Numbered from the stretch's first letter, positions 4,663 to 8,660 are shown. The stretch: DNA of 64,000 nucleotides from Thermoanaerobaculia bacterium (GCA_963664405.1 OY761158.1:6528001-6592000); one strand, 5' to 3'. Notes: generated by a model from the letters alone, not told the origin. Numbers and translations are program-made.

Positions 4663-5009
4663 GGCTCGATCGCAACGCCTCCATCTCGAAATCGAGATAC
4701 CGATCTGGCTGAGGGCGCCGACCCGTGGCTCAAGGCGATGAAGTTGGAGGAGCTGCTGGCAAGGCGCCACCCTGTACGCGTTGGTTCTCTGCACGCCCAT
4801 GTTCTGGGAAGAAAAAGATTGTTCGGGACCGCCCGCGCGGGCAGAAGAGAGCGATCGACGAGACTCTTGAGGAGCTGGAAGAGGCCCCACCCCAGACAAG
4901 CAACTGGCAACCGTCCCGATCCTGGACTCCTTGGGCGCGACGAACTCGAACGTGATCGTCGTCTGGGAGCGCGGACATGAAATCAGATCGTGGGGATCCC
5001 TGTTACCGG

Positions 5010-5366
5010 CTACGAGAAAGCGCACTTAGTTGGCTGCGAGTCGGTTTTTTGTCCCCGCGAGGCGTGACTCAGGGTGTGGCGCAGATAGTCGAGGTACCCC
5101 TCGGGGGGTGGCGTCGTGGGGAGTTCTCGGAGGATGGGGAGAAAGTAGGCGAGGGATCGGATGGGCTGGAGCTTTGGTAGGCGCGGATCTCGGCATGCGC
5201 GTCGGGCGGAGCCGAGGAGGAGGGCGGCCTGGAGGACGGTGAGAGGCAGGTCTTGGTCGAAGAGCTGGTCGACGATGACGCGGTCGCCGTGGTGGAAGCG
5301 GTGCGGGGTGTCGGGAAGGAGTCGATAGAGGCGGAGGAGCTGGCGCCGATAGTGGCTTCGGGTCAT
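5010..5366 (-). CDS. IS21-associated hypothetical protein downstream of istB
   Basis: 118 aa; ATGA overlap with istB stop; ends inside the TIR; IRSLAYFLPIL motif. Confidence 0.7.
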   Translation of the reverse strand: MTRSHYRRQLLRLYRLLPDTPHRFHHGDRVIVDQLFDQDLPLTVLQAALLLGSARRACRDPRLPKLQPIRSLAYFLPILRELPTTPPPEGYLDYLRHTLSHASRGQKTDSQPTKCAFS

Positions 5367-6157
5367 GAGCGTCGTCGTGCTGCGCTCCGCCTTTTGGCGC
5401 GGTCCTTGGCCTTTTTTTCAGCAGCCTCCTTGGCCTCCTTGCGGCGATAGGAGTTAGCCTCGATCTTGACGATCTCGGCGTGGTGGGTGAGTCGATCGAC
5501 GAGAGTGACGACGCAGGAGGCGTTGGGAAAGACCTCGGCCCATTCGGCGAAGGGCTTGTTGGTGGTGAGAAGAATGGGCTTGTTGCCGTATCTCCTGGAG
5601 ACGACCTCGAAGAGGAGATCCGCGTGGCGGTGGTCGTAGGAGAGATAGCCGAGCTCATCGATTGCCAAAAGCGAGGGTCGGGTGTATTTGGAGAGCCTTC
5701 TCTGGAGCGCCGAGGGGGTTTCCTGGACGGCGAGATCGTTGAGCATGTCGGAGGCGGTGACGAAGCTGGCGGTGGCCCCTCGTTGCAGCGCCTGGTAGAG
5801 GAGGTTCTTGGCAATCATGGTCTTGCCGACACCGTTGGGTCCGAGGAGGATGACGTTGGTGATGTCGTCGAGGAATTGGAGGGTGAGCAGATCCTGGATC
5901 TGCTCGCGGTCGATGCGCTGGGGCCAGGAGAAGTCGAAGTCGGCGATGCTCTTGAAGAGCCCGACGCGGCTGGTGCGGATGCGCCGTTCGAGGCTGCGCC
6001 GTTTGCGCTCGGCCTCTTCTTTGCGCAGCAGCTGTTCGAGCCAGGGCTGTTCTCGGTAGGTGCCCCAGTCGTCGACGAGGGCGTAGAAGCCGAGGGATCG
6101 GGCGAGCTCTCGTAGTGGTTCGTCAGGGATCGTTGGACTCTTCCTGGGTCGGGCCAT
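5363..6157 (-). CDS. istB: IS21 helper AAA+ ATPase IstB
   Basis: FDFSW, Walker A GPNGVGKT, Walker B LLAIDELGY, DRLTHH; ATG at 6157 with GGAGG RBS. Confidence 0.95.
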   Translation of the reverse strand: MARPRKSPTIPDEPLRELARSLGFYALVDDWGTYREQPWLEQLLRKEEAERKRRSLERRIRTSRVGLFKSIADFDFSWPQRIDREQIQDLLTLQFLDDITNVILLGPNGVGKTMIAKNLLYQALQRGATASFVTASDMLNDLAVQETPSALQRRLSKYTRPSLLAIDELGYLSYDHRHADLLFEVVSRRYGNKPILLTTNKPFAEWAEVFPNASCVVTLVDRLTHHAEIVKIEANSYRRKEAKEAAEKKAKDRAKRRSAARRRS

Positions 6158-7631
6158 CGTCGTTGCCTCCAAGTTGGTCGTAGTCCTCGAGGTTGTGCGG
6201 TCTCACGGAGAGATCTCGCTGTTGGAGCTCCTGGCTGAGCGGCACCGGTAAAGCCGGGGGCTGACCGAGGCCGCGCTGGTGCCGTTCGAGTAGGAGCCGG
6301 ACGGACTGGAATCGCGGTGCGTGGTTCAGGAGCGCTTCGCGCACGGCTTTGTCGAGTCGCTGGGGGCCGTACTGGCGCAGGAGTCGGAGCAGGCCGGCGG
6401 TCTGCGTTCCGAGGTTCTCGCCTCGCTCGGCGAGCTGCTGCATCAGCTCTTCGCATCGAGGCACAGCGGAAAACAGCCGATGGAAGCCCCGGTGTCGTCG
6501 GGCCCTGCGTTTGTGAGCGAGGAGCTCCTCGAGGTGTTGAGGATCGAGGATCTGCTCGCCCCGGGAGTACGAGCGAGGGTGCTCGGCGAGGAGCTCCTGG
6601 CCATCGAGGATCCGCACCCGATGCTCGCTGGCGAGGAGCGTGACGGTCCTCTGCACATGACTGTGCGGCACCGAGTAGTCGTTGAGGTCGAAGCGCACGA
6701 TCGGCGTCTTTCTGACCTTGATCTCCAGTCGCAGGTCGGTTTCGAAGTCGTCTCCGGGAAGCTCAAGCAGTCGAGGTCGTTCCTGGGCCAGGGCGCTTTT
6801 CACGGTTCGCTGTCGGTCCTGCGGCCAGGGTCTGCGCTGCGACCTCTGGCACCATTCCAGGACCTGCCGATTCAGACGATCCAAATCGCTCACCGTTCGG
6901 GCGCCGAAGAACGAGCTTCGCAGGAAGCGGATTGCGCGCTCGACGCGGCCTTTCTCATTTCCCCGAGCCACCGCGGCGACGGTGGGAAGGAAGCCGTAGT
7001 GGCTGGCGAAATCGAGCAGCACGGGATGGAAGCGCACCGCGGTTCCCTGCCGCTCGATCACCGCGGTTCGCAGGTTGTCGTACAGAACGGTCCTGACGAC
7101 GCCGTCGACGTAGTGGAAGGCCAGCTGGTGAGCGTGCAAGAAGGTTTCGAGACGAGTGTCGAGGGTGAAGTGCACGAAGACCGTGCGCGAGAACGACAGC
7201 ACGAAGACGAAGGCATAGAGCCGACGATGTGCCCGGCCGACGCGGAGCCGACCGAAGTGGCCCCAGTCGACCTGCGCCTGCTCTCCTGGCAGCATGCGCA
7301 GCGAGAGAAACGCCTCGCGCTGGGGCTTCGGTCGCATCGAGGCCACCAGGTGGCGAAACTGATCCGGGCCTCCTGGATAGCCGCGCTCCACCACCATGGT
7401 GTAGAGACGGCTCGCCGGCAGTCGTGGGTAGGTCCCGAGCACCTGCTCGATGAACGGCAGGTAAGGATCGATCATCCTCCCTCGTCGCTGCTGGGGTAGC
7501 ACGCCGGACTTCTCCAGCGCCCGGCGCACGGTTGAGGGGTGCAGCTGTAGCTGTCGAGCGATCGTGCCGACTTTCCACTTCTCGACCAGGAACAGACGAC
7601 GGATCTCCCCGCGCAGCTGTGCGTCGATCAC
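6123..7631 (-). CDS. istA: IS21 transposase IstA
   Basis: N-terminal HTH, PGEQAQVDWG, LYDNLRTAV, KGRVER (DDE), Mu-type C-terminus; GTG start at 7631 with RBS. Confidence 0.95.
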   Translation of the reverse strand: MIDAQLRGEIRRLFLVEKWKVGTIARQLQLHPSTVRRALEKSGVLPQQRRGRMIDPYLPFIEQVLGTYPRLPASRLYTMVVERGYPGGPDQFRHLVASMRPKPQREAFLSLRMLPGEQAQVDWGHFGRLRVGRAHRRLYAFVFVLSFSRTVFVHFTLDTRLETFLHAHQLAFHYVDGVVRTVLYDNLRTAVIERQGTAVRFHPVLLDFASHYGFLPTVAAVARGNEKGRVERAIRFLRSSFFGARTVSDLDRLNRQVLEWCQRSQRRPWPQDRQRTVKSALAQERPRLLELPGDDFETDLRLEIKVRKTPIVRFDLNDYSVPHSHVQRTVTLLASEHRVRILDGQELLAEHPRSYSRGEQILDPQHLEELLAHKRRARRHRGFHRLFSAVPRCEELMQQLAERGENLGTQTAGLLRLLRQYGPQRLDKAVREALLNHAPRFQSVRLLLERHQRGLGQPPALPVPLSQELQQRDLSVRPHNLEDYDQLGGNDDGPTQEESNDP

Positions 7632-7635
7632 GCCC

Positions 7636-8031
7636 CTATCTCCGTCGGCAACGACGAAAGCTCGTTCGCACAAACTCTCGGCAGGCCTCTCCACACTGCA
7701 TGCATCGCGGATTCCTCGGGTCGTAGCGCACTTCGCGCCTCGGAGTCTCGATCCGACACAGTGTCCTCCCCGAAGTACCGCCTGGGGTACCCTGATGCGT
7801 CACTTTCTCTGCCCGCTCGCGCTGGCGCCGACGGTAGCGGGCCTGACGGGCGGCATGACAATGCCGACCTCGGAGGCTTCGCTGGTACCGATGGCCGGCC
7901 GCCCGAGTCGATTCCCGACGAGCCACCAGAGCACAAGCCCGGCAGTAACGCTGGCCACGGTCACAGTGCGAGCACAGCGAGATACGCCGACGGCATCGAG
8001 CACAGTCGAAGAGTCGGTAGTCCGGTCGCAT
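7636..8031 (-). CDS. IS21-associated Cys/Arg-rich putative zinc-finger protein upstream of istA
   Basis: 131 aa with CARC, CSHC, CRAC and a C-terminal CMQC; basic helix; stops 4 nt before istA. Confidence 0.7.
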   Translation of the reverse strand: MRPDYRLFDCARCRRRISLCSHCDRGQRYCRACALVARRESTRAAGHRYQRSLRGRHCHAARQARYRRRQRERAEKVTHQGTPGGTSGRTLCRIETPRREVRYDPRNPRCMQCGEACREFVRTSFRRCRRR

Positions 8032-8660
8032 CGTCGCCTCCCATTCGACGACGACCCCGACTCTCTGCCATACTGCAAGCGCAGCTAATGCTGCGGTTTG
8101 GGGCAGAGCCCGGGGCGTTTTCTACTTCGCTTTCCCGGGCTCTCGCCGTCTCTGGTCGGCCTGCTCTATCAGAGCAGAGCCCGCACTGCAAAGCCCTACA
8201 CCGACTCACGCATCTCTTCCGACCGCAAACACGCCGCCGGGACCACGCACCCGGACCGCCGTTCCGGCGGGATGATGCCGCCCTTCCTGAAGAAGGCCTA
8301 GCTTTCCCGCGGTCGCGAAGCCCTCAGCTCACTCCATCCCGGAAACTGCGCTCGCAGCCAACGGGATGCGCTTTCTCGCAGCCATCAACAATCCCGGCTC
8401 GAAGAGCTTCATGGAGGCTAGGAAGCCCACGCCGGGAGCCAGAACCGGCCCCAGAAGCCGGCATGCCGCCCCCGGGTAGGGTTGCTCTACCCCTCGAAAG
8501 CCTGCTGAATGCACACCCGCCCCGGCACCAGGCCGCGCGCCTCGTAGGGTGCAAACTCCGTCGCCCAACCTCCCAACCGTACTGTCGCATGCGCAAGCTA
8601 CAGTGCGGGGAGCACCAGGCAGTTAAGCAACAGTGCCAAACTGACCCGGAGGCGAAAACG

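Follow-up and report, generated by a model that had tools for sequence, protein, structure and literature searches.

The 64,000-nt stretch of a Thermoanaerobaculia bacterium genome analyzed here (GCA_963664405.1, OY761158.1:6528001-6592000; hereafter the window) carries, at positions 5001-8390, an insertion sequence (IS) of the IS21 family, 3390 bp in length, in which the transposase gene istA and its helper gene istB are accompanied by genes for a 131-residue Cys-rich protein (zf131) and a 118-residue basic protein (o118). All four genes are on the minus strand, in the order zf131-istA-istB-o118, inside inverted repeats. The reading that we favor, with reasonable though far from full confidence, is that zf131 and o118 are a regulator and a cofactor of the IstA/IstB steps in an active four-gene IS21 element. 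That both are conserved, functional parts of the element is very probable; the specific role proposed below for each of them is offered tentatively.

The four-gene element and its copies

The element has TG..CA ends, and its two 40-nt arms form the longest, though imperfect, inverted repeat of the region. Each end carries the repeat TGGCTRCGAG twice, 24 nt apart; because the motif itself is not rare window-wide (19 matches at one mismatch, against 12.2 expected), the weight of these repeats lies in their symmetric placement. The features, in window coordinates, are as follows.

4996-5000: target-site duplication ATCCC, left copy (the same five bases as 8391-8395)
5001-5040: terminal inverted repeat at the istB/o118 (3') end, starting TGTT; 40 nt, 80% complementary to the other arm; CGGCTACGAG at 5007-5016 and TGGCTGCGAG at 5031-5040 (plus strand)
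5010-5366, minus strand: o118, 118-residue basic protein with five predicted helices; last codons inside the terminal repeat
5363-6157, minus strand: istB, AAA+ helper ATPase (PF01695, 1.8e-62; NF038214, 210.6 bits against a cut-off of 200)
6123-7631, minus strand: istA, DDE transposase with rve and Mu-transpos_C_2 domains (NF033546, 244.8 bits against a cut-off of 160)
7636-8031, minus strand: zf131, 131-residue Cys-rich protein; GGGAGG 5 nt before the ATG
8032-8350, minus strand: non-coding leader between zf131 and the right repeat
8351-8390: terminal inverted repeat at the zf131 (5') end, ending AACA; two TGGCTGCGAG repeats at 8351-8360 and 8375-8384 (minus strand)
8391-8395: target-site duplication ATCCC, right copy, matching the left copy

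The genes are closely packed. The likely start of istA is the GTG at 7631, which is preceded by GGAG, lies 5 nt past the TAG of zf131 and coincides with the point at which the family profile begins on IstA (the longer listed frame runs from 7694). The istB frame, starting at ATG 6157 (the listed open reading frame (ORF) opens at TTG 6172), overlaps the end of istA, and the ATG of o118 overlaps the TGA of istB (ATGA). The four genes are translationally linked in one transposing unit. A promoter scan of the leader revealed no sigma-70-type consensus, other promoter types being outside the scan.

The genome (a single contig of 6.78 Mb) contains 21 full copies of the element and one that lacks the first 24 nt, all 99.9-100% identical, together with fragments. 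Among the full copies, flanking duplications of 5 bp are present in 18 and of 6 bp in one, and two have none. The recurrence of the same 3390 bp confirms a preliminary description of the region, made before any comparison, as a four-gene IS21-like unit with exact ends, subterminal repeats and an ATCCC duplication; the delimited copies likewise bear out its claim that accessory ORFs lie on both sides of istA-istB between the terminal repeats, and these ORFs travel along when the element transposes. The element has recently been active as a four-gene unit.

The two full copies without a matching duplication are those at G000:C1:50517 and 6746429. The right flank of the latter repeats the empty site of copy 5444194, a pattern that suggests a rearrangement between copies or a duplicated region. 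Solo fragments of the zf131-side end (70-280 nt, 94-100% identical) are found in G000:C1 near 5453134, 893454, 4828916, 3050771 and 3324765, and further broken copies near 3062969-3067365 and 6339246-6345987. Beyond this genome, contigs of four public runs from four studies, two of the runs labelled as marine sediment and seawater metagenomes, contain pieces 90-100% alike over the o118 and/or zf131 region. At the RNA level, one metatranscriptome run yielded a single identical 247-nt contig inside istB, which is too little for a claim about transcription.

The accessory genes and their IstA clade

Conservation of the four-gene arrangement was assessed from both of its ends. In the survey that started from o118, one genome per species was used and the best 80 of 460 stretches encoding a relative were examined; drawing loci by way of o118 and by best score introduces bias, and contigs of metagenome-assembled genomes may be mis-binned. 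Gene istB is directly upstream of o118 in 76 of the 80 loci. By profile search, zf131 is directly upstream of istA in all 60 loci in which the start of IstA is intact and 450 nt or more of upstream sequence is available (outside these 60 are three o118 loci with too little upstream sequence and 17 without an IstA start). The records of the 80 loci are assigned to Acidobacteriota in 70 cases and elsewhere in 10 (Burkholderiales, Rhodocyclaceae, Alphaproteobacteria (2), Verrucomicrobiia, Chthoniobacterales, Planctomycetota, Syntrophobacteraceae, Methanoperedens and Methanoregulaceae), and for contigs this short the binning is uncertain. Comparison of copies delimited elements in four other genomes: three are 3304-3328 bp long with TG..CA ends and 5-bp duplications, and the fourth (L062/L064) is 3410 bp long, with limits not resolved to TG..CA. 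Matches to both zf131 and o118 lie inside the limits of all four.

The survey that started from IstA covered 401 genomes of the phylum, of which 74 had a match; 40 loci spread across the range of identity to the window IstA were examined, together with the second IS21 of this genome. Of the 12 loci with an IstA identity of 45% or more, 11 have zf131 and eight have o118, the single zf131 exception (L101) being a degenerate copy. Among the 29 loci with an identity of 37% or less, none of the 26 with room upstream has zf131, and an o118-like gene follows istB in two (L113 and L131). An IstA tree of 53 rows, built by a quick search without bootstrap and without the loci whose IstA match is shorter than 380 residues (L111, L113, L114, L131, L132 and L133), separates 30 rows of the zf131-bearing clade from 23 rows that have neither gene, with a Shimodaira-Hasegawa-like approximate likelihood ratio test (SH-aLRT) value of 100 for the branch. 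L101 falls inside the zf131-bearing clade, although zf131 was not found there. Thus zf131 marks one well-supported IstA clade, and the gene order is conserved across this deep clade. On the same tree o118 is present on both sides of the first split of the clade, so it is either ancestral with losses or was gained more than once.

Both accessory genes are real genes under purifying selection. In 18 non-overlapping pairs of elements the ratio of nonsynonymous to synonymous substitution rates (dN/dS) is 0.14-0.39 for zf131 (dS not estimable in one pair) and 0.08-0.33 for o118 (not estimable in four), compared with 0.06-0.19 for IstA and 0.03-0.21 for IstB, all these values being rough as dS is near saturation in most pairs.

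The zf131 protein matches no Pfam or NCBIfam family at E ≤ 0.1. Its homologues number 232. Of the 401 phylum genomes searched, 24 contain zf131. In 53 aligned sequences C10, C13, C20, C23, C30, C33, H59, H79, C110 and C113 are invariant. The predicted structure (predicted local distance difference test (pLDDT) score of 80.9) consists of two short β-hairpin strands bearing CxxC pairs, followed by two long Arg-rich helices (residues 31-51 and 53-76) arranged as a hairpin and a C-terminal tail, containing the last CxxC, that is poorly defined. The N-terminal CxxC part is a predicted zinc ribbon. Compared with the Protein Data Bank (PDB), the model gave no Foldseek match at E ≤ 0.001 and nothing reaching Z 5 in VIA-align.

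Equally, o118 matches no Pfam or NCBIfam family at E ≤ 0.1. The search of 90% clusters gave 30 homologues, and a profile search reached 1610 of the 50%-identity clusters at E ≤ 0.001, or 896 when the threshold was 1e-10; most of these proteins have 100-170 residues. Fourteen columns are invariant in 27 aligned sequences, including R55, R56, R59, Y74, F75 and a YLxYLR motif. By residue count the protein is strongly basic, and its model (pLDDT 87.4) shows five helices and a floppy tail, the latter encoded by the terminal repeat. Against PDB sequences the o118 profile found only a chance match (an aldo-keto reductase, E 0.39). The ESM Atlas returned only unnamed clusters. Natural IstB-o118 fusions were sought and rejected: 25 longer proteins matched, eight of them with PF01695, and the nine that were read look frameshifted, internally deleted or like partial calls.

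Related elements and known systems

The element has an IstA-type transposase, an IstB helper encoded after istA, repeat-bearing ends and a short duplication, as expected for IS21. In the available excerpt of PMC10122671, IS21-family elements are described as having two ORFs and ends that carry L1/L2 and R1/R2 repeats. The window element agrees with IS21/IS5376 in that both IstA and IstB exceed their NCBIfam cut-offs, the end of istA overlaps the istB that follows it, and the TG..CA ends, the two repeats per terminal inverted repeat and the short duplication follow the layout given in that excerpt. It differs in being 3.39 kb long, with four genes instead of two: a zinc-finger gene precedes istA, and a 118-residue frame overlaps the istB stop and enters the terminal repeat. 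Because four conserved genes lie inside the ends, in departure from the two-ORF description, we class the element as an IS21 variant and not as a typical member. The other IS21 branches sampled are distant, with IstA only 24-37% identical to that of the window. Full-text literature searches, which did not cover ISfinder, turned up no description of IS21 elements carrying accessory genes of this kind. Judged from these searches, the zf131-bearing branch seems to be undescribed, and its earlier proposal as a candidate new IS21 subgroup is upheld within the same scope, the family being stated as two-ORF in the excerpt of PMC10122671.

The genome also contains a second four-gene IS21 of the same clade, in about eight copies (G000:C1:5999500-6004000), whose zf131, IstA and IstB are 40, 50 and 60% identical, respectively, to those of the window element. 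Its o118-like gene, which starts at a GTGA overlap with istB, was found by the profile and missed by tblastn.

A further transposable element of this genome, L093, belongs to a different type (rve+AAA_22). It is 3556 bp long and present in five copies (G000:C1:264981-268536), with TGAGAG...CTCTCA ends and 5-bp duplications, and it encodes a 212-residue Cys-rich HTH_23 protein, an rve transposase, an AAA_22 ATPase and an o118-like protein. This last protein aligns with o118 at an hhalign probability of 99.5% and its gene is placed directly after the ATPase gene. Like the window element, L093 therefore has TG..CA ends, 5-bp duplications and the order Cys-rich protein, DDE transposase, AAA+ ATPase and o118-like protein; unlike it, the transposase and ATPase are of other families (the nearest NCBIfam model for the transposase is IS481, below its cut-off) and the first gene is unrelated to zf131. 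Kinship between that first gene and zf131 was considered and rejected, at an hhalign probability of 0.1%. The relatives of L093 in other genomes retain only the first three genes. In a near-identical sibling genome (CAXWPL010000005.1), a copy of the four-gene IS21 splits the transposase gene of an rve+AAA_22 copy.

The closest plasmid DNA, about 67% identical across istA-istB, belongs to the IS21 elements of Alicycliphilus denitrificans BC and Aromatoleum aromaticum EbN1. A tblastn search with zf131 matched 31 plasmid records; the same search with o118 gave no match in plasmids. On NC_006823.1 (A. aromaticum EbN1 plasmid 1) and NZ_CP013412.1 (a Burkholderia thailandensis plasmid) the zf131 match is unannotated in RefSeq and lies just upstream of an annotated istA.

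Proposed roles and alternative explanations

In the mechanism that we propose, IstA (the DDE transposase) and IstB (the AAA+ helper) carry out the known IS21 chemistry. The zf131 protein, a putative zinc-binding and, with its Arg-rich helices, nucleic-acid-binding protein, may have been taken up at the head of the operon out of a pool that plasmids also use, and would set the level or timing of istA/istB expression or act at the ends of the element. Small proteins of this kind on plasmid backbones are usually regulators. The o118 protein would be made in step with IstB and act at the IstB step, in target DNA capture or in hand-over to host replication or repair. We infer this cofactor role from gene order and conservation only. 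The placement of o118 after the AAA+ gene in separate element types points to a link with the ATPase, and, because related elements do without it, o118 is better regarded as helpful than as essential.

A number of results weigh against this assignment. For zf131, 29 loci of the family in the phylum were examined (one further locus, from an unpublished genome, was excluded), and IstA is directly downstream in 18 and not in the other 11, so zf131 is not specific to IS21. ArdC-type genes adjoin zf131 in five of the 11 loci without IstA (L171, L173, L176, L186 and L187), the call of an ArdcN domain plus a zincin metallopeptidase being confirmed by Pfam in L173 and L187 and made from the same N-terminal sequence in the other three; L173 also has a RepA_C gene beside zf131. 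Two further loci without IstA have zf131 by a ParB-HTH gene in one case and by an IS256-type transposase in the other. The zf131 proteins are thus a zinc protein family common to plasmid-like backbones and this IS21 clade.

The evidence on the same side for o118 is of three kinds. The gene is optional within the clade, being absent or having an unrelated 70-residue gene in its place. L096, L097, L100 and L117 group within the clade on the tree and have no o118; in L117 the contig stops, and the first three are three-gene forms since the element stops 60-100 bp past istB. In the Aromatoleum and Burkholderia plasmids named above, the slot after istB is occupied by a 70-71-residue 'hypothetical protein' that overlaps the istB stop, is alike in both, has an hhalign probability of 0.25% against o118, and is not present in the Acidobacteriota loci. 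Accordingly, the expectation that both accessory ORFs would stay with their IstA clade held for zf131, on the counts given above, and did not hold throughout for o118. Second, o118 also occurs without its usual partners and is rare in the other type of element. Four of the 80 loci (L081, L083, L090 and L091) are orphans with no IS21 or rve/AAA_22 transposase detected alongside, those in L083 and L091 having ordinary chromosomal neighbors (genes for a glycosyltransferase, an alcohol dehydrogenase, an arylsulfotransferase and a large helicase); the orphans are perhaps remnants or domesticated copies. Within rve+AAA_22 elements, an o118-like gene was found only in this genome and its near-identical sibling, and it is absent from the three nearest relatives of L093 elsewhere (49-58% identical), which have room for it downstream.

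Third, the predicted fold gives little direction. Foldseek searches of the PDB and BFVD with the o118 model gave no match at E ≤ 0.001 (BFVD entries with 'replication' names are weak, at E of about 2). In exhaustive structure alignment the top match is the AAA+ lid 3thg_A (Z 7.2, root-mean-square deviation (rmsd) 3.2 Å, 80 residues aligned), with many AAA+ lids at Z 5-7, TnsC at Z 5.4 and the DnaD domains 2i5u (Z 5.6, rmsd 2.5 Å, 66 aligned) and 2zc2 (Z 5.4), all of these scores being under the caution line of the tool and of a size common by chance among helical bundles. With the PF07261 (DnaD/DnaB_2) model, nothing in this genome, home to about 30 genes of the o118 family, matched at E ≤ 0.01, and the 301 phylum genomes scanned gave nothing at E ≤ 1e-5; the positive controls, Bacillus subtilis and Lactococcus lactis, were matched.

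The strongest alternative, which we consider unlikely though worth serious attention, is that zf131 and o118 are passengers: selfish or host-directed cargo, such as a plasmid-type regulator and an anti-defense or addiction DNA-binding protein, with no part in transposition. The zf131 relatives that lack IS21 and lie beside ArdC in five loci (with RepA_C in one) or beside ParB-HTH in one are what this would predict, as are the clade members in which o118 is missing or replaced and the four orphan o118 genes. Cargo would not be expected, however, to keep such fixed positions, zf131 directly before istA and o118 overlapping the istB stop, nor would both genes be kept across a clade so deep that IstA is only 45-54% identical to the window copy. 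The size of the element is steady at 3.3-3.4 kb, with o118 ending within the terminal repeat, and an o118-like gene occupies the same slot after the ATPase gene in an unrelated element that also has an ATPase.

A bolder extension of the cofactor reading, which we regard as improbable in its full form, takes o118 as the founder of a large unnamed family (the 1610 clusters) that would supply a third subunit of AAA+-regulated transposition, docking on IstB-DNA and connecting the strand-transfer product with the host's replisome or repair machinery, in the way that DnaD/DnaB serve DnaI. Its further parts, which jointly we rate no higher, are that o118 would be of the DnaD-C or AAA+-lid type and recruited independently by IstB and AAA_22 transposons, sometimes fused to a winged helix, with zf131 as the regulator on the IstA side. 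The DnaD/DnaB co-loaders of DnaI (in Firmicutes, and among phage replisome organizers) have a layout of a winged helix plus a helical domain. Similarly, o118 is small, basic and helical, with a weak resemblance to the DnaD fold, and in the two distant IS21 loci L113 and L131 the o118-like domain forms the C-terminus of a 312-317-residue protein whose N-terminus has weak HTH_36 matches (E 0.004 and 1.6e-4, below the Pfam cut-off). A DnaD-like cofactor is attractive because IstB is a close paralogue of DnaC/DnaI, as stated in the available excerpt of PMC11208146; the PF07261 test failed, however, and the fold evidence is weak, as o118 has no link to DnaD at the sequence level and unrelated helical bundles reach Z-scores of the same size.

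The preliminary description had raised the possibility, by analogy with Tn7-like systems, that one accessory protein acts as a TnsD/TniQ-type target selector, steering insertion to particular sites. We consider this very unlikely. The analogy is with Tn7/Tn5053 (TnsB/TniA, TnsC/TniB and TniQ/TnsD), which likewise combine a Mu/retroviral-type DDE transposase, an AAA+ regulator and small subunits in one operon, and the zinc-binding N-terminus of zf131 is the only further point in its favor. The expected target bias did not appear: when the empty sites of the 19 copies that carry a duplication were reconstructed, no consensus emerged (no position exceeded 0.6 bit), and the duplications vary among the copies. 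Neither zf131 nor o118 has a sequence relation to TniQ, which is among the Pfam families that they fail to match at E ≤ 0.1, and the window ATPase is of the DnaC/IstB branch and not the TnsC branch. In addition, TniQ and TnsD are far longer than the 131 and 118 residues of zf131 and o118. Finally, the proposal that the extra frames are chance ORFs, prompted by the many long overlapping ORFs on both strands that are expected at the 63% G+C of the region, can be set aside given homologues in their hundreds in which Cys/His or Arg/Tyr columns are invariant, the dN/dS values well below 1 in the 17 (zf131) and 14 (o118) of 18 pairs with estimable dS, and the confident models (pLDDT 81 and 87, respectively).

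The reading of zf131 and o118 as a regulator and a cofactor bears on how the family as a whole is understood. Current annotation misses both the boundaries of the IS and the zf131 gene. With their clear ends and 30 copies in one genome, the two four-gene elements are ready material for transposition assays. IS21 serves as a structural model for AAA+ control over a DDE transposase and is described as a two-gene system; if both accessory genes do act in transposition, two unnamed protein families would gain a function, and, for a large share of the family, a model with IstA and IstB alone would fall short.

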